Shown here: one piece after another, positions 1 through 13,686 of the stretch | Position numbering within the stretch: position 1 is the stretch's first letter | How the letters are laid out: every line of letters starts with the position of its first letter | From: Candidatus Omnitrophota bacterium | GTDB taxonomy: Bacteria; Omnitrophota; Gorgyraeia; JAFGHF01 | Assembly: GCA_016939375.1 (NCBI GenBank) | Contig: JAFGHF010000063.1 | Coordinates: 2,119-66,118, forward strand | Length of the DNA: 64,000 bases | Direction: 5' to 3' | Program-made: the position numbers and the translations under genes | The notes under the pieces: generated by a model | Told to the model about the DNA's origin: nothing | Database searches by the model: none | The model's input: the letters and a program-made list of their open reading frames with translations, nothing else

Positions 1-3000
1 CATCCTGCGTGGCTACGCCCACAGAACAATTATTCAGATGACAATGTCTTAACATCACACAACCGGATGCTACCAGAACAGCGGTACAAAAACCATATTC
101 CTGGGCTCCTAATAAAGCGGCGATGGCCACATCGCGGCCGGTACGCATCTGGCCGTCAGTCTGCAGACAGACACGCGAACGCAGGTTGTTCAATATTAAT
201 GTCTGATGGGTCTCAGAAAGCCCCAGCTCCCAAGGAAGTCCTGCATATCTAATCGAACTCTTTGGCGAGGCCCCCGTACCTCCGTCGCCTCCGGATATAA
301 GTATCATATCGGCATGGCCCTTGGCTACTCCCGCGGCGACTGTCCCCACTCCGATTTCAGAGACCAACTTTACGCTGATACGCGCTTGGGGATTTGCATT
401 CTTTAAATCAAATATCAACTGCGCCAGATCTTCGATAGAATATATATCGTGATGCGGCGGCGGTGATATCAAAGTCACCCCTTGCGTAGTATGCCTGGTG
501 CGGGCGATTATCTCACTCACTTTGTGCCCGGGAAGCTGACCCCCTTCGCCCGGCTTTGCCCCTTGGGCAATCTTGATTTGTATTTCATCGGCATTGACCA
601 AATAATTTATGGTCACACCAAATCTCCCGGAAGCGACCTGCTTTATAGCGCTTCTTCTTGAATCTCCGTTAGGAAGCGTGATAAACCTATTGGGGTCCTC
701 GCCACCTTCTCCGGTGTTGGATTTACCGCCGATCCTGTTCATGGCGATAGCGATAGTCTCATGCGCAGGGCTGCTAATCGAGCCAAAACTCATCGCCCCT
801 GTGGCAAAACGCCGCATGATATTTTCCGCCGGCTCGACCTGTTCAATAGGAATAGAATCTTTCTTTTTAAATTCAAGCAGGCTTCTTAAGGTCGTGGGGT
901 TGGCTGATTGATCGTTTATCGCCTGGGCAAATTCCTTGTATCTTTGGTAGTCATTCTTACGCGTAGCATCTTGTAACGCGACTATGCTCTGCGGGTTCCA
1001 TAGATGGAACTCTCCGTCTTTCTTCCATTGATATATACCGCCGCTAGCCAAGTAATCAACGCCTATATCCCTTTGTGGATAGGCCTGTTTGTGTCGCGAA
1101 ATAGTCTCCTGGGCGATTTCATCAAGACCTACGCCACCGATACGCGATACGGTGCCGCTGAAATATTCCTCTATCAGTTCCATATTTAACCCCAAGGCCT
1201 CGAATATCTGCGCGCCACGGTAGCTTCTTAAAGTCGATATGCCCATTTTTGATAGAATCTTCAATATACCGTCTGTTATGGCCTTTTTATAGTTTTTTAT
1301 CGCGACCTTTAAGTCTGAATCTATCTCTTTTTCATTTATCAGGTATTCTATGGCCTCGTAGGCAAGGTAAGGGTTTACGCAACCCGCCCCATAACCGAAT
1401 AAAAGCGCAAAGTGGTGCACTTCCCTGGGTTCAGCGCTTTCCACTATTATCGCTACCTGAGAACGGATATTTTTCCTCACTAGGTGCTGATGCACAGCAC
1501 TGGTAGCCAAGAGCGTGGGCAGCGCGATGTTATCTTTATCCGCTCCCCGGTCACTCAATATAATAAAGGAATAACCTTTTTCAATGGCGTATTCGGCCTC
1601 AAAGCATATCCTCTGCAAGGCCTGTCTAAAACCTTCTTTTCCTCCGCCGACATCAAAAAAGGTATATATAGTCTTGGTCTTGAAACCGTTGATGCTGATA
1701 TCGCGTATTTTTTCAAGTTCTGCGTCTGTCAAAATTGGGTTTCTCACCCTTAGCTTATGACTGTGTTTTTGCGTTTCATCCAATATATTCTGCTCCGGAC
1801 CGATAAAACTCTCCAGGCTCATCACCAGTTTCTCGCGGATAGAATCTATGGCCGGATTGGTCACCTGTGCGAAGAGTTGCTTGAAATAGTTGTATAAAAG
1901 CTGAGGCTTTTTGGACAAAAACGCATGCGGTGTATCGTTGCCCATAGAGCCTACCGGTTCTTTGCCTTCTTCGGCCTTGGGCCTGATGACCAGTTTTAGG
2001 TCTTCCCGCGTATAACCAAAAGCCTTAAGGCTGGGGATTAAATCTTGCGTCCTTTGGCTTGAGGAACTCACGCTAAGCAGTTTATCCAGATCGACCATAT
2101 TCTCTTCATTCCACTTTCCATATGGCTGGCGCGAGGACATCCTTTTCTTTATCTGCGAATCATTTACTATACAACCTGATTCTGTGTTGATAAAAAATAT
2201 TTTACCGGGCTCTAGCCTCCCGCAATGCTTGATATTCTCTGGGGCTATATCAAGGACACCCACTTCAGAGGCCATGACCACAAAATCGTCTTTGCTGACG
2301 ATATAGCGGGCAGGACGTAAGCCGTTTCTATCCAGCACCGCCCCGATATTCTTCCCGTCGGTAAAAGCGATAGCGGCCGGGCCATCCCACGGCTCCATAA
2401 AACAGGCGTGATATCTATAAAAATCTCTCAATTTTTTATCCATCAGCCCATCGTGCTCCCAGGCCGCGGGAATAAGCATCGTCATCGCGTGCTCAAGAGA
2501 CCTGCCCGAGAGGACTAAAAGCTCAAATATGTTGTCTATCGCCGCGGAATCACTTCCCCCTTCTACGATGACGGGTTTCAGTTTTTCAATATCGGTGCCG
2601 AAAAGTTCAGTGGTCAAGAGTCTTTCTCTAGCCCTAACCCAATTTATATTTCCGCGCAAGGTATTTATCTCACCGTTGTGGGCCAAAAACCTAAAGGGTT
2701 GAGCCAGGTCCCAGGTGGGAAAGGTATTGGTGCTGTAGCGCGAGTGCACCAGACAAAGAGAACTCTCTATCGAAGTATCTTTTAAGTCCAAAAAGAAGTC
2801 CTGCAGTTGAGAAGGCATCAAAAGTCCTTTATAGCTTAAGGTCCGGCCTGAGAGATTAGTGATGTAGAAAAATGATTTCTGTTCAATAGAAGATGCCCTG
2901 ACCTCGGCCTCGAGTTGCTTGCGGATGATATAGAGTTTCCTCTCAAAAGCAAGTTCGTCTTTCAATTCTTTGTCTCTTTTGATGAATACCTGCGATATAT

Positions 3001-3442
3001 AAGGCATGGTCTGGCGGGCACCGTCTCCTATCACCGAGCTCTCTATGGGGACCTCACGCCAACCCAAAAGCTGCTGGCCTTCCTGCGTGATGACTTTTTG
3101 GAAAATATCTAGGCAGGTCTTTCTCTCATTTTCATCCTGAGGTAAAAAAACAAGCCCTGTGCCATAAGATCCCAAAGCAGGTAAATCAATATGTGCCTTT
3201 TTGCATTCTTTAAATAAAAACTTATGCGGCATCTGGATGAGGATACCGGCGCCGTCTCCAGTGAGCGGGTCAGCGCCTACCGCACCGCGGTGGCTTAAAC
3301 GTCTGAGTACCTCGATCCCTTTTTTGACGATATCATAGGACTTCTTCCCTTTAATGTTACAGACGAATCCCACGCCGCAATTATCGTGCTCGAATCGCGG
3401 ATCATATAGACCCTGCTTTAGGGGGAAATGTCTGTATTTCAC
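1..3442 (-). CDS. gltB: Glutamate synthase (GOGAT) large subunit, partial; C-terminal end lies beyond the window start
   Basis: Manual reverse-complement translation gives one continuous frame of ~1146 aa. It starts [27 protein letters not shown] (the Ntn amidotransferase Cys), followed by a TLRGNINW-like motif, the central domain and an FMN-binding region ending ...GDGGTGASP...[14 protein letters not shown]. The ORF track omits it because it has no stop inside the window. The GTG start (complement of 3440-3442) overlaps the TGA stop of the upstream gene, forming GTGA. Confidence 0.88.
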
Positions 3443-3699
3443 TTTTTAAATCTCTCCACGTCAATATCGAGTTTTTGTATCTTTTTGTGCAAAGTATTAC
3501 GGTTTAGACCTAAAAGCCTTGCTGCCTGAATTTGATTGCCTTCGGTACGTTTTAAGGCCTTGCTAATAATCGCCCTTTCAATACTACTAATAGTATCGTC
3601 ATAGATATGGCCGGAGTCTACGCTGTGAAAATCTTCGTTTAACGAATCGTAAATATCATCCATAACTAATTTGCCTAATTTTTGTGCACTCCCGGACAA
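3439..3699 (-). CDS. Stand-alone Fis/NtrC-family helix-turn-helix DNA-binding protein (86 aa)
   Basis: The C-terminal region ...[27 protein letters not shown] matches the HTH_8 (Fis/NtrC C-terminal) signature. There is no receiver or AAA+ domain. It sits between glnA and gltB. Confidence 0.7.
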
Positions 3700-3760
3700 A
3701 ATTTTTTGTAGGCCCCGCTTCTAAATAGCGGTTTTGAAGCAGGGCCTACCGCTTTACTCG

Positions 3761-5092
3761 TTATAGGACCGAAAGATATTTATCCAGTTCGTATTGAGGC
3801 ACCTGGATGCGGTAATCATCCCATTCCTTCTTTTTAAGTTGTATAAACCTGGGGAATATATGCTCTCCCAGTGTCTTTTTGACCAGGGCGCTGTCTTCGG
3901 TTATGGCAATGGCATGGCCCAGTGAATCGGGTAAGGTCTCGATGCCTTGGGTCCTTCTCTCCTCGGCGCTTAAGTGGTATAGGTTTTGCTCCATCGGCTT
4001 AGGTACTTTGTATTTTTTCTCTATGCCTTCCAAGCCGGCTTGAAGCATAGCGGCAAATGTAAGGTAAGGATTGCACGCCGGGTCACAGGCTCTAAATTCG
4101 CAGCGCGTGGCTTTTTCTTGACCGGGATGATAAAGCGGTACGCGTATAAGCGCGCTTCTGTTCCTGCGGCTCCAGGCCACATATACCGGGGCTTCATATC
4201 CGGGGACTAACCTCTTGTACGAGTTTGTGGTCTGGGCAAATATGGAACATATCTCCTTGGAATGTTTCAAGAGGCCCGCGATATAATACTGGGCTGTGCT
4301 TGAGAGAAAGTCTTTGGACTTGGCATCGAAAAAGGCATTTTTACTTCCTTTAAAAAGCGACTGGTGTGTATGCATGCCGGAACCGTTTTCGCCAAAAATA
4401 GGTTTGGGCATAAAAGTGGCATATACGCCGAACTTGCTGGCTATTTCTTTTACGACTACCCTGTAGGTGATTACGTTATCGGCCATCTCCAAGGCGTCTT
4501 TATAACGCATATCGACTTCGTGCTGTGAAGGGGCGACCTCATGGTGGGAATATTCCACATCGATGCCCATTTTCTCAAGGGCTAATACCGTCTCTCTTCT
4601 TAAATCGCTGGCTACATCTAAGGTAGTAAGGTCAAAGTAACCACCTTTATCCAGTATGTCCGCAGAATTATCGGCCTTGAAATAGAAAAATTCGAGCTCG
4701 GGACCCAGATAATAATGGTCAAAACCCATCTTCTCTGCCCTCTCCAGTGCCCGCTTGAGCACATACCGTGGGTCGCCTTCGTAAGGGGTCTTATCCGGGT
4801 TTAATATATCGCAGATCATTCTGCCCACAGCTTTTTCTTTGGGCCGCCAGGGCAGAATCTGAAAAGTATCCGGATCGGGCATAGCAATCATATCCGATTC
4901 CTCTATATCCTGATAACCGGTGATAGAGGAGCCGTCAAAGCCCATGCCGTTTTCCAGAGCACCCTCCAACTCCTTATCGGTGATGGAGAAGCTCTTTACC
5001 CTGCCTAAGACGTCGGTAAACCACAGACGTATAAATTTGACATCCTTCTCCTTTGCCAGCTTTAAAATATCCTGTTTTGTTTTCTTTGCCAT
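3761..5092 (-). CDS. glnA: Glutamine synthetase type I (443 aa, GSI-alpha size class)
   Basis: Full-length GS type I catalytic-domain similarity by eye (N-terminal beta-grasp region MAKKTKQDILKLAKEKDVKFIRLWFTDVLG, catalytic domain, NLYHLSAEE near the C-terminus). An AGGAGG RBS sits 8 nt upstream of the ATG. Confidence 0.95.
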   Translation of the reverse strand: MAKKTKQDILKLAKEKDVKFIRLWFTDVLGRVKSFSITDKELEGALENGMGFDGSSITGYQDIEESDMIAMPDPDTFQILPWRPKEKAVGRMICDILNPDKTPYEGDPRYVLKRALERAEKMGFDHYYLGPELEFFYFKADNSADILDKGGYFDLTTLDVASDLRRETVLALEKMGIDVEYSHHEVAPSQHEVDMRYKDALEMADNVITYRVVVKEIASKFGVYATFMPKPIFGENGSGMHTHQSLFKGSKNAFFDAKSKDFLSSTAQYYIAGLLKHSKEICSIFAQTTNSYKRLVPGYEAPVYVAWSRRNRSALIRVPLYHPGQEKATRCEFRACDPACNPYLTFAAMLQAGLEGIEKKYKVPKPMEQNLYHLSAEERRTQGIETLPDSLGHAIAITEDSALVKKTLGEHIFPRFIQLKKKEWDDYRIQVPQYELDKYLSVL

Positions 5093-5120
5093 TTTAGTCC
5101 TCCTGTTTTAATAAATATTA

Positions 5121-5160
5121 GACATAAAAAAAGACGTTCTTATCTCTTTAAGAACGTCTT
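5121..5160 (-). terminator. Intrinsic terminator/attenuator hairpin in the glnA leader
   Basis: On the minus strand: AAGACGTTCTTAaagagaTAAGAACGTCTT followed by TTTTTTTAT, about 30 nt upstream of the glnA RBS. Confidence 0.6.
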
Positions 5161-5180
5161 TGTCCTTTTCACCTTGTGCT

Positions 5181-5197
5181 TGCACAAACTTTGTGCA
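5181..5197. promoter_or_regulatory. Perfect 17-bp palindrome TGCACAAACTTTGTGCA (candidate NtrC-type operator)
   Basis: Half-sites TGCAC...GTGCA with the same 17-bp span as the NtrC consensus TGCACC-N5-GGTGCA. It lies in the glnA leader between the conserved box and the terminator. Confidence 0.4.
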
Positions 5198-5230
5198 GTT
5201 ATTTACACAATTATCTCTTCCACCATTGAT

Positions 5231-5265
5231 AAGTAAAAAATCGCCTCTTTTGGTAACCTTCTTTT
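5231..5265 (-). promoter_or_regulatory. Conserved ~35-nt leader box, copy 1 (glnA leader)
   Basis: The minus-strand sequence AAGAAGGTTACCAAAAGAGGCGATTTTTTACTTA is near-identical to the copy upstream of amtB. Confidence 0.5.
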
Positions 5266-5275
5266 TCAAAAAAAT

Positions 5276-5617
5276 TTATCCTATGGCCTGCCCGCCGCTT
5301 TGGCCTGTTCTGATCCTGATGCATTCGGGTAGGTCCAGAATAAATATCTTACCATCGCCAATCTGGCCAGTCTTGGCCCCTTTTATGATGGCATCAATGG
5401 TCGGCTGGACAAAATCCTCATTTACCGCTATCTCTAACCTTACTTTTTTCAACAAGTTAACTTCATGTATGACCCCTCTATAGGTCTCTGTATAGCCCTT
5501 TTGCTGGCCGCAGCCCAAGGCATTGGTAACAGTCATCTTAAAGACTTCGGCATCATATAGGGCCGCCTTTACATCGGGTAGTTTATGGGGTTGTATCATT
5601 GCAATTATTAGTTTCAC
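5276..5617 (-). CDS. glnB: Nitrogen regulatory protein P-II
   Basis: 113 aa; [13 protein letters not shown]...[11 protein letters not shown] (T-loop with Tyr)...GDGKIFI. Canonical P-II. Confidence 0.95.
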
Positions 5618-5632
5618 GGCATCCTCCTTAAC

Positions 5633-6916
5633 CTATTGTGTAGTAAAGACTTGAAATCCGGAATAGGACTCCATCCCATGTTGACTAAGGTCCAACCCTT
5701 TCAACTCCTCTTCTCTGGAAACCCTTAGGCCTACTGACTTATCAATCATCTTAAACACAAAAAACATCACGCTGAGCACAAATACAACAACACTGAATAC
5801 GCCCAACGCCTGTACTCCCAGCTGGGTGAACCCTCCACCATGAAAAAGTCCGTCTCTGGCCAAACCCAATGCCTTACGGCCAAAAATACCCACAGCCAAT
5901 GTACCCCATATACCATTCATCGCATGTACCGGCACCGCTCCCACAGGATCGTCTACTAATACCTTATCAAGAAATACAGTTCCCAAAACTACGATTATAC
6001 CGGCTATAGCGCCAATAATCATAGCCTCATAAGGCATGACAAAGGCACAAGGTGCAGTTATCGCTACCAATCCCGCCAATGCCCCGTTCATGGTCATGGT
6101 TAAGTCCGGTTTTCCGAACTTACGCCAGGCAAAAAACATAGCCACTAGCCCCCCGCTGGCCGCAGCCAGATTTGTGGTAATAGCCACATGGGCGATTTGG
6201 CTTCCGTCGCCTACGCTAAGCGTAGAACCGGGATTAAATCCAAACCAGGCAAACCATAAAATCAGTGTCCCTAAAGAGGCTAAGGACATGGAATGTCCGG
6301 CAATAGCATTGGCTGAGCCGTCCTTATTAAACTTGCCGATTCTGGGACCAAGAATTATTGTTCCCATCAAGGCCGCACAACCTCCCACTGCATGCACAAC
6401 GGTGGAGCCGGCAAAATCAGCAAAATCAAGACCGGCCAACCAACCGCCGCCCCAAATCCAGTGTCCTACTAAAGGATAGACGGTCGCGGAAATAATGAAA
6501 GAATACAACAAATATGCGGGAAACTTCATTCTCTCTGCCACGCCACCGGCAACAATAGTCGCTGCCGCCCCGCAGAATACCGCGTGAAAAAACCAATTGG
6601 CGTACAACGGAAGGTCATTATGCGCCACGGTTCCGTTTAGAAACCATCCTGAAAAACCCATAAAGGCGTTTCCGCTACCGAACATTATGGCATAGCCAAA
6701 CATAAAAAAGCCCAATGAGGCCATGCAGAAATCTAAAAAGTTATTCATTAACACGTTACAGGCGTTTTTGGTCCTGATTAAACCCGCTTCAAGCATGCCA
6801 AAACCAGCTTGCATTATAAAGACCATAAACGCCGCAATCATCACCCAAAGCGTGTCAATCCCTACTTTACTAGCATAAATTACGTTTTCCACCTTACTTC
6901 TCCTTTCCAAAAACAA
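5633..6916 (-). CDS. amtB: Ammonium transporter (Amt family)
   Basis: ~420 aa polytopic membrane protein with Amt family similarity. The track start is a TTG. A GTG 8 codons downstream (complement ~6890-6892) has a GGAAAGGAG RBS and is the more likely start. Confidence 0.93.
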   Translation of the reverse strand: MFLERRSKVENVIYASKVGIDTLWVMIAAFMVFIMQAGFGMLEAGLIRTKNACNVLMNNFLDFCMASLGFFMFGYAIMFGSGNAFMGFSGWFLNGTVAHNDLPLYANWFFHAVFCGAAATIVAGGVAERMKFPAYLLYSFIISATVYPLVGHWIWGGGWLAGLDFADFAGSTVVHAVGGCAALMGTIILGPRIGKFNKDGSANAIAGHSMSLASLGTLILWFAWFGFNPGSTLSVGDGSQIAHVAITTNLAAASGGLVAMFFAWRKFGKPDLTMTMNGALAGLVAITAPCAFVMPYEAMIIGAIAGIIVVLGTVFLDKVLVDDPVGAVPVHAMNGIWGTLAVGIFGRKALGLARDGLFHGGGFTQLGVQALGVFSVVVFVLSVMFFVFKMIDKSVGLRVSREEELKGLDLSQHGMESYSGFQVFTTQ

Positions 6917-6947
6917 AAAGGGCGTCTTTTCTTAAAAAACGCCCTTG
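6908..6947 (-). terminator. Intrinsic terminator/attenuator hairpin in the amtB leader
   Basis: On the minus strand: AAGGGCGTTTTTTAAGAAAAGACGCCCTT followed by TTTGTTTTTGG, ending a few nt before the amtB RBS. Confidence 0.6.
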
Positions 6948-6983
6948 TTAAAAACACTACTCTGTGCTTTTTCTCTATCTACA

Positions 6984-7018
6984 CTCTATTAAGTAAAAAA
7001 TCACCTCTTTTGGTAACC
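6984..7018 (-). promoter_or_regulatory. Conserved ~35-nt leader box, copy 2 (amtB leader; overlaps the last codons of the sigma-like gene)
   Basis: The minus-strand sequence AAGAAGGGTTACCAAAAGAGGTGATTTTTTACTTA matches 33/35 positions of the glnA-leader copy. Confidence 0.5.
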
Positions 7019-7516
7019 CTTCTTGCGCCATTTTTTAATCATATTCTTTTTATATTTAAGGACCATGACGTGTGAAATGCTCATTTCATCGGCAATCTGG
7101 CGCACAGTATAGCCTTTAAGAAGATATGAGAGGACTGTCCTTTCCTTTTCAGTTAAGCCTGTCTTCTTTATCTCATCGACTGTGATCTTATCTTCAACGC
7201 TCGAGCCAAAGGGGAGCTTTTTGTCCTCGATGATATCGCCTAATGTAAGGCCCCCGGGAGTAATAACCTCATCGAGGCTGGAAAATATTGCCTTGGGCCT
7301 TCCTTTTCTTAAGAAATTCTTTATGTGAAACTCGCAGGCTTTGATCACATAGGCCTCGTTTTTTCCTATTGGCAGACCTTGGCCGTAATTTTGCCATAAA
7401 AAAATACACATCTCCTGATAGAGGTCCTCTTCAGAATAGAAGCCATAGAGCAGGTTTTTTCTGGCAATATGCTTAAGAACAGGTGTTATTTTATCCAGCA
7501 ATATCCTAAAATCCAT
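7001..7516 (-). CDS. Sigma-70 family (ECF-like) RNA polymerase sigma factor, 171 aa
   Basis: A region-2-like segment (EDLYQEMCIFLWQNY) plus a C-terminal region-4 HTH (LTEKERTVLSYLLKGYTVRQIADEMSISHVMVLKYKKN). Confidence 0.6.
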   Translation of the reverse strand: MDFRILLDKITPVLKHIARKNLLYGFYSEEDLYQEMCIFLWQNYGQGLPIGKNEAYVIKACEFHIKNFLRKGRPKAIFSSLDEVITPGGLTLGDIIEDKKLPFGSSVEDKITVDEIKKTGLTEKERTVLSYLLKGYTVRQIADEMSISHVMVLKYKKNMIKKWRKKGYQKR

Positions 7517-7540
7517 CTTTTTTTGCCCTTTATATAGAAA

Positions 7541-7580
7541 AAGGGCGTCTTAAAGCCAAAGCATGGCTTCAAACGCCCTT
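7541..7580 (-). promoter_or_regulatory. Leader hairpin immediately upstream of the sigma-like gene RBS
   Basis: AAGGGCGT...ACGCCCTT stem (the same stem sequence as the amtB leader terminator) followed by TTTTTCT. Its 5' arm can alternatively pair with GCCCTTT at 7524-7530. Confidence 0.45.
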
Positions 7581-7587
7581 GTTTGTA

Positions 7588-7616
7588 CAAAAAAAGACGT
7601 TCTAAGAAGAACGTCT
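7588..7616 (-). terminator. Intrinsic terminator after the GAF-ANTAR gene
   Basis: AGACGTTCTTcttAGAACGTCT followed by TTTTTTTG on the minus strand (the same stem as the glnA-leader terminator). Confidence 0.6.
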
Positions 7617-7681
7617 ATGTTCCGGGCACATCTATGTGCCCTTCATCTATGAGTATAGCACAATATTAGGGTGCGGTCAAC

Positions 7682-8407
7682 TCATTTTTTATAAGATTTT
7701 TTCATCTCCTCGGCCAATATTATGGCCTCTGATACATCACGCATGCTCTTTCTGCTGTCCATGCTGTATTTCCTTAAGCGCTGGTATGCCTGTTTCTCCG
7801 TTAAGCGCTCCTGCTCCATTATGATGCCCTTGGCCTTCTCAATAGATTTTCTTGCTTCCAGCTCTTCCTTGATAACCTTGGACTCCACTACCAGCCTAAA
7901 ATTCTCGATTACGATAGCGGCCTGATTGGCAATCGACTTTAAGGCATTTATCTCATTTTTGCTGAATTCATGTGGTTTAGAGGTATAGCTATTTAATACG
8001 CCTATGGGCTTTCCTTTAAATATTAGCGGCACACATAATAATGAACAAAGCTTCTCTTTTTTGGCAATGCTGGTATTAATATAATCTTTATCTTTACGCA
8101 CATCGGTCACGGTAATCGGCTTTCCCTCTTTAGCTACTTTGCCGGCAATGCCATTGCCTATCTTGATATTCGGCTTCTTGTTATATGCCTCACTGACCGA
8201 TTGAGTGGCCTTGACCTCCAATTCCTGCGTTTTTTTGTTTAATAACATTATAGAGCAGATTTTAGAGCTCATCACCTCGGCAGTTACAGTGACAATAAGT
8301 TTGAGCACATCGTCCAAGTAGGAATCCGAGGCTATAGCCTCACCTATCTTGGCTAATGCCTGGATTATATGCTTGGGATCACATATTTGTTTATTTTCCC
8401 TTGCCAT
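7682..8407 (-). CDS. GAF domain + ANTAR domain RNA-binding antiterminator-type regulator (241 aa)
   Basis: An N-terminal GAF-like ~150 aa is followed by a C-terminal ANTAR signature IEKAKGIIMEQERLTEKQAYQRLRKYSMDSRKSMRDVSEAIILAEEM. Confidence 0.8.
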   Translation of the reverse strand: MARENKQICDPKHIIQALAKIGEAIASDSYLDDVLKLIVTVTAEVMSSKICSIMLLNKKTQELEVKATQSVSEAYNKKPNIKIGNGIAGKVAKEGKPITVTDVRKDKDYINTSIAKKEKLCSLLCVPLIFKGKPIGVLNSYTSKPHEFSKNEINALKSIANQAAIVIENFRLVVESKVIKEELEARKSIEKAKGIIMEQERLTEKQAYQRLRKYSMDSRKSMRDVSEAIILAEEMKKSYKK

Positions 8408-13258: not shown

Positions 13259-13290
13259 GCCGTCCGCTTTTTTATTTACACTCCATTTTA
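13259..13290. terminator. Palindromic hairpin between the PilP-like gene and mnmG
   Basis: GGACGGCcaaacgattgagaGCCGTCC; T-run on the plus strand, weaker U-run on the minus strand. Confidence 0.35.
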
Positions 13291-13686
13291 CTCTATTACT
13301 AAGACTTCTTGACTTACGCCATCACTTAAGATTACTCTGTTCTCTTCGATGCGTTCCACCTTCATACCGCCGATCTCGTCCCCGGCATGCACTACCTCGC
13401 CGTTTATCAAGGCATAAGGAGATTCCTCGTCCCAGATAACTCCGGAAAGGTTAAGCTGGACCCTGGCCTCGGCCTCTTCACTGGGCCAGACAAAAGGATT
13501 CCTGCCCCATTCTTTATAAGCCGTTCTTTTTTTATCCTCTAAGTTCGGTAATTCCACAGTTTTATTTGCTAAAGGAGCAAGGGCGTTTGAAGAAGACTGT
13601 CCTTTTTTTGTGCCTTTGGGCAGCCAGATCACCAGCGCCACTACCACAAGAACGGCAAGAATCGCGATCCCTTGAATCTTCTTCAT
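13288..13686 (-). CDS. PilP-like pilus assembly protein (small, N-terminal TM/signal, C-terminal beta domain); hypothetical
   Basis: N-terminal hydrophobic segment and C-terminal LSGVIWDEESPYALINGEVVHAGDEIGGMKVERIEENRVIL, resembling PilP/GspC HR-type domains. Position is directly after pilO. Confidence 0.4.
   Translation of the reverse strand: MKKIQGIAILAVLVVVALVIWLPKGTKKGQSSSNALAPLANKTVELPNLEDKKRTAYKEWGRNPFVWPSEEAEARVQLNLSGVIWDEESPYALINGEVVHAGDEIGGMKVERIEENRVILSDGVSQEVLVIE

Follow-up and report, generated by a model that had tools for sequence, protein, structure and literature searches.

The 64,000-nt stretch of the Candidatus Omnitrophota contig JAFGHF010000063.1 analyzed here (the window, to whose coordinates all positions refer) carries a group of nitrogen assimilation genes next to a one-component regulator with GAF and ANTAR domains, and our analysis suggests, with a probability that we put at about 0.75, that a two-tier nitrogen-assimilation switch operates in this locus, combining antitermination by the GAF-ANTAR protein with a sigma factor of the extracytoplasmic function (ECF) type. 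Every gene of the finding lies on the (-) strand, and the order along the direction of transcription is asnB, the GAF-ANTAR regulator (241 aa), a sigma-like gene (171 aa), amtB, glnB, glnA, a small helix-turn-helix (HTH) gene and gltB. An earlier interpretation of this DNA (the sequence-only reading) had proposed that the regulator antiterminates the leaders of glnA and amtB-glnB, and our results support this; the proposed second regulatory layer, in which the sigma gene would itself be an ANTAR target and a box distinct from sigma-70 promoters would drive the amtB and glnA leaders, is absent from it. The central genes are the following:

7682..8407, (-): GAF-ANTAR one-component regulator, 241 aa, with N-terminal GAF, long helix and C-terminal ANTAR
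7001..7516, (-): putative ECF-type sigma-70-family factor, 171 aa; stop codon 7003-7001
5633..6892, (-): amtB, ammonium transporter; mechanical open reading frame (ORF) to 6916; Pfam 4e-127
5276..5617, (-): glnB/glnK, P-II signal protein; Pfam P-II 1.2e-26
3761..5092, (-): glnA, glutamine synthetase type I; Pfam Gln-synt_C 1.6e-129

All features named in the sequence-only reading were recovered on the (-) strand with coordinates that were exact or off by 1-2 nt, and Pfam bears out each of its gene calls, although the starts of amtB and of the HTH gene had to be shifted. The probable start of amtB is GTG 6892, after AAGGAG, and homologues align from about residue 10-21, while the HTH gene probably begins at ATG 3663, the mechanical ORF start being too long.

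Predicted antitermination signals in the leaders

Known ANTAR substrates consist of two short hairpins (P1 and P2) with A1/G4 hexaloops, conserved closing pairs and a linker of about 5-12 nt, in which P2 and the terminator are mutually exclusive (PMC3369931, PMC8934654). Arrangements of this kind were found in the leaders of the sigma gene (leader 1), amtB (leader 2) and glnA (leader 3):

7652..7680, (-): sigma-70-type promoter with extended -10, TTGACC-17-TGcTATACT; consensus scan 10/12 plus TG; predicted start of the sigma leader
7624..7641, (-): leader 1 P1, GGGCAC-AUAGAU-GUGCCC, hexaloop with A1/G4; present in the minimum-free-energy and centroid folds and detected by the scanner and by the covariance model (CM)
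7608..7623, (-): leader 1 P2, GGAAC-AUAGAC-GUUCU; the 5' arm of T1 is made up of its loop and 3' arm
7589..7616, (-): terminator T1, AGACGUUCU-UCUU-AGAACGUCU plus U-run; hairpin 7616-7595, 9 pairs, tail TTTTTTTG
7570..7585, (-): P2', CAAAC-AAGGGC-GUUUG, without an accompanying P1; overlaps the 5' arm of T2
7541..7580, (-): terminator-like T2, AAGGGCGU...ACGCCCUU, inner stem in a long loop; 10-pair outer stem, weaker tail UUUCUAUA
6953..6968, (-): leader 2 P1, AGCAC-AGAGUA-GUGUU; can extend to 6971-6950; seen by folding and scanner
6938..6949, (-): leader 2 P2, AAC-AAGGGC-GUU, 3 pairs; overlaps the 5' arm of T3
6909..6946, (-): terminator T3 plus U-run; hairpin 6946-6918, 13 pairs; ends about 10 nt before the amtB Shine-Dalgarno sequence
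5181..5197, (-): leader 3 P1, UGCAC-AAAGUUU-GUGCA, 7-nt loop with A1/G4; the most frequent P1 of the family
5150..5167, (-): leader 3 P2, AAGGAC-AAAGAC-GUUCUU; overlaps the 5' arm of T4
5123..5161, (-): terminator T4 plus U-run; hairpin 5161-5130, 13 pairs; about 25 nt before the glnA Shine-Dalgarno sequence

At all four window sites P2 overlaps the 5' arm of the terminator, making the two structures mutually exclusive, and P1 stands upstream at three of the four. Loop positions A1 and G4 are present in 7/7 window loops; the P2 loop is a hexaloop at every site, and that of P1 has six nucleotides in leaders 1 and 2 and seven in leader 3. Leader 3 has a linker of 13 nt between P1 and P2; in leaders 1 and 2 it is only 0-3 nt long. 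Our scanner, defined by an AnnGnn hairpin whose loop or 3' arm begins a U-run terminator and which is preceded by a second A/G-loop hairpin, returned five dual-hairpin-plus-terminator sites on the gene strand of the window (the four leader sites and one within amtB), compared to 0.03 per dinucleotide shuffle (30 shuffles). Additionally, the region contains 17 terminator-like sites, where shuffles give 6.4 +/- 2.9; T1, T3 and T4 are among those of the simple terminator scan, and T2 has a long loop with an inner stem.

These results agree with several structural claims of the sequence-only reading. Its four hairpins are real, with 9-13 pairs and U-runs for T1, T3 and T4 and a 10-pair outer stem for T2; terminators near the ribosome-binding sites were confirmed for amtB and glnA at the distances listed above; and the dual-hairpin ANTAR substrate that it had predicted, with the second hairpin on the 5' arm of the terminator, was seen in the leaders by folding as well as by the scanner. 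The reuse of stem sequences to which it had drawn attention also withstands counting, since 8 copies of AAGGGCGT and 5 of AGACGTTCT are present where 1.9 and 0.2, respectively, are expected, neither count being reached in shuffles. Moreover, AAGGGCGU consists of the P2 loop AAGGGC and the first part of the 3' arm, and AGACGUUCU of the final four bases of the loop and the 3' arm, and because both words are the loop and arm of P2, the reuse of stems points to the recognition sequence of the protein rather than to local duplication. Taken together, these observations make ANTAR-type attenuation ahead of the nitrogen genes highly probable.

Other explanations of individual elements were considered and set aside. 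No covariance model of a known riboswitch, including the glutamine riboswitch (glnA RNA), matched the window; no Rfam family reached its gathering score there, and at E<=10 the interval 5000-7750 gave only small RNA matches far under threshold, the best at E 0.19, which are presumably due to chance. Leader-peptide attenuation of glnA was rejected as well, as the 7-codon ORF ATGGTGGAAGAGATAATTGTGTAA lacks a Shine-Dalgarno sequence and could not be recognized in those related leaders that were inspected by eye. Further motif matches at 13575-13604(+), 993(+) and 5816(-) are attributed to chance, since they lie inside coding DNA and have a CM E>=7 for the first and no support for the others. The hairpin at 13575-13604(+), AAGGGCGTTTGAAG...GTCCTT followed by a T-run, has 14 nt in common with T2 and lies antisense within ORF 13288-13686(-).

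Conservation and covariation in related loci

Two sets of related loci were compared with the window, one comprising 80 genome loci of regulator homologues (Omnitrophota, Elusimicrobiota, Desantisbacteria, Margulisiibacteriota, Nitrospirota and others) and the other 80 metagenome loci of sigma homologues (L081-L160). Within the regulator set, the dual motif was found 26 times on the regulator strand and never on the opposite strand (0-2 in shuffles), and sites with P2 on a terminator numbered 87 on the regulator strand and 25 on the opposite one (13-23 in shuffles). In the related loci the motif stands before amtB, glnB, glnA, HTH-gltB and the sigma-like gene, frequently also before the gene of the regulator, and the downstream genes identified by Pfam further include glutamate dehydrogenase (gdhA), a glutamate-synthase-like protein, glutamine synthetase type III (GS-III), carB (CarB), glutamine-dependent NadE (nadE), a CN-hydrolase and a class-I glutamine amidotransferase. 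Judging from the genes that follow the motif, the theme of the predicted regulon is the assimilation and use of ammonium and glutamine.

A MAFFT alignment of 16 leaders misaligned P1, whose loop and linker lengths vary, and was replaced by a seed of six sequences with CM realignment. This six-leader model detects non-seed leaders at E 1e-4 to 1e-2, and on a set of 100 sources (the window, the 80 sigma loci and 19 regulator loci) it gave 85 matches at E<=0.05, all on the gene strand, from which a second model (R2) was built. Paired bases fill 98.7% of the helix cells of the CM alignment, the closing C-G of both helices is invariant, and double-sided changes amount to 39 compared to 7.2 +/- 2.2 in shuffles (0/500 shuffles reach 39), in an alignment that is fitted to the proposed structure but for which the slid-partner control nonetheless falls sharply. 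Across the family the P1 loop mostly has 7 nt (AAnGUUW) and the P2 loop mostly 6 nt (AAAGGC or AAAGAC), A1 is found in 86-90% and G4 in 91-97% of cases, and linkers span 7-14 nt; among 79 distinct family sites, P2 is a hexaloop in 54, and P1 has 7 nt in 71 and 6 nt in 5.

In the window, R2 recovered leader 3 at E=4e-8 (a site in the training set), leader 2 at E=0.006 although it was outside the training set, leader 1 at E=0.007 and P2' at E=0.15. When R2 was run unfiltered over the whole 64 kb, the glnA, amtB and sigma leaders and the P2-only site took ranks 1-4, and all remaining matches had E>=1. The leader motif and its terminator, expected from the first interpretation to be kept in homologous loci, are thus conserved and covary across about 160 of them. 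A local duplication as the source of the repeated stems and of the two promoter-like boxes described below was rejected, as loops, arms and box are found again in some 160 loci that belong to different genomes.

Many related loci also carry, between the sigma gene and amtB, a gene for a signal-peptide protein of about 280 aa behind an ANTAR attenuator of its own, which is absent from the window (for example L044:7224-8054 and L048:8801-9652; sigma-amtB gaps of 0.9-1.5 kb occur in many of L081-L160). By eye this protein resembles an outer-membrane beta-barrel or porin, and the L044 copy has no Pfam match.

The GAF-ANTAR regulator and its sensor domain

The Pfam search that had been suggested for the 241-aa protein matched both predicted domains above the gathering score, GAF_2 at 4e-23 and ANTAR (PF03861) at 1e-20, the latter covering residues 180-230 with 73.7 bits against a cut-off of 27.3. 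In phmmer searches the ANTAR part matched the EutV-like structure 6wsh (E 5e-8), NasR 4akk (E 8e-7) and Rv1626 1s8n, and the AlphaFold2 (AF2) monomer, with a predicted local distance difference test (pLDDT) score of 88, has a GAF fold followed by a helix of 50 residues (150-200) and two more helices. An identical protein, named "GAF and ANTAR domain-containing protein", occurs in a Candidatus Omnitrophica metagenome-assembled genome (MAG), and the homologues run into the thousands. No other ANTAR gene was found within the 64-kb window, and we consider it very likely, from gene position and motif distribution, that the adjacent GAF-ANTAR protein is the cognate regulator of the leaders.

With regard to the sensor, the best NCBIfam match of the GAF domain is PtsP/EI-Ntr (PRK11061, 1.9e-20, residues 17-206), followed by NifA (1.5e-12), and the top solved structures in Foldseek are the PtsP GAF domains 3trc (E 4e-12, template modeling (TM) score 0.85) and 3ci6 (E 1e-11, TM 0.83), both TM scores being normalized to the target. 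The GAF domain of the Aquifex NifA-like protein Nlh1 was also matched by phmmer. EI-Ntr's GAF domain binds glutamine, which inhibits the enzyme (PMC4848567). Since the closest relatives in both sequence and fold are glutamine-binding PtsP GAF domains, a glutamine and/or 2-oxoglutarate signal is plausible, although an identity of only about 23% to the PtsP GAF does not establish the ligand; by this analogy, glutamine or 2-oxoglutarate is a possible ligand to which we assign somewhat less than even odds.

In L055-L079 (e.g., L055:7494-7985), whose regulators have 46-51% identity, the GAF-ANTAR gene is directly preceded, and nearly overlapped, by the gene of a GAF-only paralogue of about 165 aa; no gene of this kind was found in the window. 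Near-identical regulator or sigma systems (L007, L009, L010, L015, L033, P0147) occur in records titled Actinomycetota, Planctomycetia, Clostridia and even Thermoproteota archaeon, and such odd taxon labels on MAG records probably reflect binning or classification errors rather than the true distribution.

The sigma-like gene and its leader

The 171-aa protein matched the NCBIfam model TIGR02937 (sigma70-ECF) (165 positions) over residues 3-166 at E 7e-10 and 38.7 bits. Pfam reported GerE (1.7e-10) together with a weak Sigma70_r4 match, and NCBI and JGI name the family sigma-70 or sigma-24. Its AF2 model consists of two helical domains, and the top full-length matches in the PDB according to Foldseek are the ECF sigma factors SigH, SigL, RpoE, SigK and SigW, with probabilities of 0.9-1.0 and E values from 1e-3 to 1e-1. 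On these profile and model comparisons the protein is probably an ECF-type sigma factor. Its neighbors are the regulator and amtB, and no anti-sigma gene was found beside it.

The order sigma-amtB-glnB-glnA-HTH-gltB is maintained in most of the 80 metagenome loci, with the GAF-ANTAR gene immediately upstream in some only. A promoter arrangement TTGACA...TGTGGTATACT precedes most of the homologous sigma genes, whose usual leader consists of a sigma-70-type promoter, P1 and then two or three tandem attenuators, the window having two (T1 and T2). Second or third attenuators with P2 only, placed straight after the previous terminator, are present in many homologous sigma leaders, and one may speculate that this arrangement reflects a hand-over from the preceding P2. 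According to the strict scanner, ANTAR-type attenuators stand upstream of 64 of 78 sigma homologues, and the promoter-like box described next stands upstream of none (0/78). Because attenuators and never the box are found upstream of the sigma gene, synthesis of the sigma factor appears to be a target of antitermination and not autoregulated.

A conserved promoter-like box

Two copies of a bipartite element at variance with the sigma-70 consensus, GGTTACCA-N15-TTTTTACTT, were found upstream of the amtB and glnA leaders:

6990..7018, (-): box 1, GGTTACCAAAAGAGGTGATTTTTTACTTA; spans the last codons and stop of the sigma gene; candidate promoter of the amtB leader
5230..5258, (-): box 2, GGTTACCAAAAGAGGCGATTTTTTACTTA; in the glnB-glnA spacer, as in 26 related loci

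The word GGTTACCAAAAGAGGYGATTTTTTACTTA occurs exactly twice in the window, where 0 copies are expected. In 161 sources (1.47 Mb), the gene strand has 108 copies of the pattern GTTACC-N16-TACTT and the opposite strand a single one, with a spacing of 16 in 107 of the 108; 75 copies lie at the 3' end of the sigma gene, 26 between glnB and glnA and several ahead of the regulator gene. The consensus of 98 distinct copies is an A-rich segment followed by G-GTTACCA-aAa-N7-tTtTT-TACTT-rta. The position of the box at the sigma 3' end is kept even in homologues of 30-40% identity, and the sigma C-termini ...KKGYQK, ...KKRLPxx and ...FYL... correspond to one DNA box (GGTTACC...TTTTTACTT) read in different frames or lying past a shifted stop. 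Because the box is kept irrespective of reading frame and stop position, it is the DNA that is conserved and not the peptide, which indicates that the tail of the sigma protein is shaped by an embedded DNA signal.

Of the 95 distinct boxes, 62 are followed within 220 nt by P2 and a terminator (strict scanner), the median distance to the end of the terminator being 94 nt. Such a layout, in which a start signal meets a terminator some 90 nt on, is a signature of attenuation. We lean towards the view, based on the placement of both elements, that the box is read by the 171-aa sigma factor.

The proposed switch and its implications

Under scarce nitrogen (low glutamine and/or high 2-oxoglutarate), the GAF domain would release or activate the ANTAR dimer, which would bind P1 of the nascent RNA and then pass to P2, as in the successive-binding model of EutV. 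With P2 held closed the terminator could not form and RNA polymerase would read through. The sigma gene would be transcribed from its sigma-70-type promoter, and read-through of T1 and T2 would yield the ECF-type sigma factor; since the gene lies behind two tandem attenuators, sigma would be made only when the antiterminator is active. The sigma factor would then initiate transcription at the two boxes ahead of the amtB and glnA leaders, where the antiterminator would be required again, at T3 and T4. Both sigma and antitermination would thus be needed to express amtB-glnB and glnA, which amounts to a coherent feed-forward AND gate, a loop that would filter brief signals and shut off fast. In other genomes, where the regulator gene itself lies behind a box and/or an attenuator, positive feedback would be added.

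The crude six-frame regular-expression scan of the 64-kb window for signs of sigma-54 and NtrBC returned 0 GAFTGA or RpoN-box motifs. Two histidine-kinase H-box motifs (SHELRTPL) were seen at about 23576 and about 29154 (-), within large ORFs. Extended beyond the window, our proposal is that in Omnitrophota and neighboring candidate phyla a GAF-ANTAR protein that senses glutamine or 2-oxoglutarate gates, through tandem attenuators, a dedicated ECF sigma factor free of an anti-sigma partner and governed by attenuation alone, and rechecks at a second attenuator the transcripts that this sigma initiates, taking the place of NtrBC/sigma-54, GlnR/TnrA and NtcA, with a promoter inside the sigma gene's own 3' end; we advance this generalization tentatively, at close to even odds.

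The locus links a GAF-ANTAR protein to a candidate RNA site, a regulon and a plausible class of ligand in a large uncultivated phylum. If the pairing is true, it would explain how nitrogen is regulated in these small-genome bacteria without the classical systems, and would provide a compact, portable AND gate made of an RNA-binding sensor, a sigma factor, a promoter of 29 bp and a leader of 50 nt. Besides, nitrogen regulons in metagenomes can be annotated by means of the box and the leader model.

Alternative explanations

The leaders could be of the ANTAR type without the box being a promoter of the 171-aa protein, which might then be a DNA-binding regulator of the LuxR/GerE type, and the box could be a housekeeping promoter aided by an activator (e.g., the small HTH protein), a promoter read by another sigma factor, or an RNA element in a long sigma-amtB-glnB-glnA transcript. 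The GerE HTH is the only domain clearly recognized by Pfam in this protein, its NCBIfam ECF match falls under the cut-off, the Foldseek matches have E values of 1e-3 to 1e-1 and low TM scores, the lack of a box upstream of the sigma gene means that the autoregulation typical of ECF sigma factors is missing, and the sigma-box pairing is drawn from physical linkage. However, the ECF model aligned over residues 3-166, including a segment resembling region 2 (DLYQEM...W), and the top full-length structural matches are ECF sigma factors throughout; the box, moreover, is promoter-like, being bipartite with a near-invariant 16-nt spacing and a variable middle, is unlike the sigma-70-type promoters by which the sigma genes of these genomes are preceded, and holds its place at the sigma 3' end down to 30-40% identity. 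We therefore regard this explanation as unlikely. It is quite improbable that the attenuators are governed by another ANTAR protein, such as a response regulator encoded elsewhere, by another RNA-binding protein or by a small-molecule riboswitch. Such an assignment would suit the many sigma and nitrogen clusters on metagenome contigs that have no adjacent GAF-ANTAR gene, the generic character of ANTAR loops, to which any ANTAR protein might bind, and the limitation of the comparison to contig loci, but it has to face a motif strongly enriched beside GAF-ANTAR homologues and in many cases placed directly before the regulator gene, a 64-kb window with no second ANTAR gene, the lack of a credible Rfam match at the leaders even at E<=10, and a pattern of conservation, two small loops and their closing pairs, that suggests a protein site and not a ligand pocket. 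Finally, each terminator does lie 3' of a gene and AT-rich intergenic DNA often contains intrinsic terminators, which would allow the hairpins to be ordinary terminators of the regulator, sigma and glnB genes with A/G hexaloops arising by chance; yet promoters or boxes stand between the upstream stop and the terminator, so that transcripts would begin only to end 60-100 nt later, the chance expectation of the motif is 0.03 per window, and the motif covaries in about 160 loci on a single strand, and we give this explanation hardly any weight.

Several points weigh against the two-tier switch itself. The parts, their order and their conservation are observed, while RNA binding, ligand and promoter use are deduced from sequence. 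On the side of the sigma factor, the ECF match lies just under the NCBIfam cut-off (42.9 bits), the AF2 model has a pLDDT of 67, which is only moderate, and another factor could read the box, its assignment to the sigma being drawn from their linkage. On the side of the RNA, P2 of amtB has only 3 pairs, T2 has no P1 and a weak U-tract, P1 usually carries a 7-nt loop, unlike the canonical substrate (and the first model was seeded with 7-nt loops), and the pair counts lean towards the structure because the alignment was fitted by the model. The linkers of 0-3 nt in leaders 1 and 2 fall below the range that works for EutV, and EutV action was impaired when the eutP linker was cut to 3 nt (PMC3369931). 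The regulator is not adjacent to the sigma and nitrogen cluster in most metagenome loci, and many of its closest homologues have no nitrogen genes within 8 kb; because the regulator is often distant from the cluster, the pairing of regulator and RNA is drawn from linkage and co-occurrence.

The HTH-gltB unit and flanking genes

Downstream of glnA lies a unit whose organization differs from that of the leaders described above, and asnB flanks the regulator on the other side:

10435-8477, (-): asnB, upstream of the GAF-ANTAR regulator gene
3708..3749, (-): post-glnA hairpin GUAGGCCC...GGGCCUAC, then A6U4; no ANTAR-type loop; similar hairpin plus AAAAATTTTT in related loci
3672..3688, (-): conserved 17-mer TGCAC-N7-AGGCA, 9 nt before the likely HTH start
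3439..3663, (-): small Fis/NtrC-type HTH protein; mechanical ORF to 3699; overlaps the gltB start; Pfam HTH_8 1.9e-15
1..3437, (-): gltB, glutamate synthase large subunit; stop-free translation and tblastn to homologues; extends past the window edge

The HTH protein has NCBIfam matches to Fis and to the C-terminus of NtrC, resembling only the DNA-binding domain of the latter. ANTAR control of the HTH-gltB unit was rejected for the window, as no AnnGnn hairpin lies on the post-glnA hairpin; the distant loci L012, L048 and L058 do carry an AnnGnn hairpin before HTH-gltB. A relaxed pattern of the 17-mer stands before 11 of 24 HTH genes and is not strand-biased overall. In L081, L084, L099, L111, L114, L117, L121 and L128 the 17-mer lies 9-45 nt before the HTH start, with a hairpin and AAAAATTTTT tract upstream and no Shine-Dalgarno sequence before the HTH start codon. 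This element may be the operator of the HTH protein or an unusual (leaderless?) promoter; a sigma-54 promoter was rejected, since the element lacks the GG and its GC-to-GC spacing exceeds the required one by 2 nt.

Comparison with known systems

Antitermination by ANTAR proteins ahead of nitrogen genes has precedents, as Ramesh et al. (2012) predicted ANTAR leaders before P-II, ammonium transporters and glutamine and glutamate synthases (PMC3369931). The eut leaders of Enterococcus faecalis and their regulator EutV have in common with the window the A1/G4 hairpins, the closing pairs, the exclusivity of P2 and terminator, several terminators per regulon and a homologous ANTAR domain, and the model in which EutV is recruited and then handed over (PMC8934654) fits the P1-P2-P2' series of leader 1. 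In contrast, the sensor is a GAF domain here and a phosphorylated receiver in EutV, the targets serve ammonium assimilation instead of ethanolamine use, P1 mostly has a 7-nt loop, two window linkers measure 0-3 nt, and an alternative sigma factor is among the predicted targets. NasR, which acts on nasF in Klebsiella oxytoca, is likewise a one-component protein of nitrogen assimilation with a sensor, a long helix and a homologous ANTAR domain, but it differs in its NIT domain for nitrate/nitrite, its single target operon and a promoter tier formed by sigma-54/NtrC in place of an ECF-type sigma controlled by the antiterminator.

The two-tier logic is most directly paralleled in Geobacter sulfurreducens, where GnfR binds CAGGCAANGGCGCC in the nif (nifH), glnK and amtB leaders, below an RpoN/GnfM promoter tier (PMC2995071); GnfR, and not GnfM as the sequence-only reading had it, is the correct name of this ANTAR protein (PMC2995071). 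The GnfR site CAGGCAANGGCGCC has the same AAGGGC loop and C-G closing pair as P2' and the P2 of leader 2 in the window, and the GnfL/GnfM and GnfK/GnfR systems likewise combine a specialized promoter with antitermination. GnfR, however, is a response regulator activated by a kinase, and its tier of RpoN and enhancer-binding protein sits above the antiterminator, an order that is reversed here. As for the sensor, PtsP (EI-Ntr) is the closest relative of the GAF domain and binds glutamine, but its GAF controls a phosphotransferase, whereas here the domain is fused to an RNA-binding one.

In the accessible, incomplete literature we found no description of a GAF-ANTAR nitrogen regulator or of a characterized GAF-ANTAR protein, nor of a nitrogen-linked ECF sigma factor or of such a box, and the main text of the ECF reclassification paper does not mention an attenuator-gated, nitrogen-dedicated ECF sigma with a promoter in its own 3' end. 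ECF sigma factors controlled through their own synthesis likewise are small two-domain proteins with a bipartite promoter of about 16-nt spacing, and no anti-sigma gene is seen next to the sigma gene of the window; the system proposed here would differ from them in that synthesis is gated by tandem attenuators, the promoter lies in the 3' end of the sigma gene itself and the factor is dedicated to nitrogen. Overall, ANTAR attenuators before nitrogen genes are already known, and what appears to be new in this locus is the combination of the GAF sensor, the predicted attenuator-gated ECF sigma factor and the candidate promoter lying within the gene of the latter.

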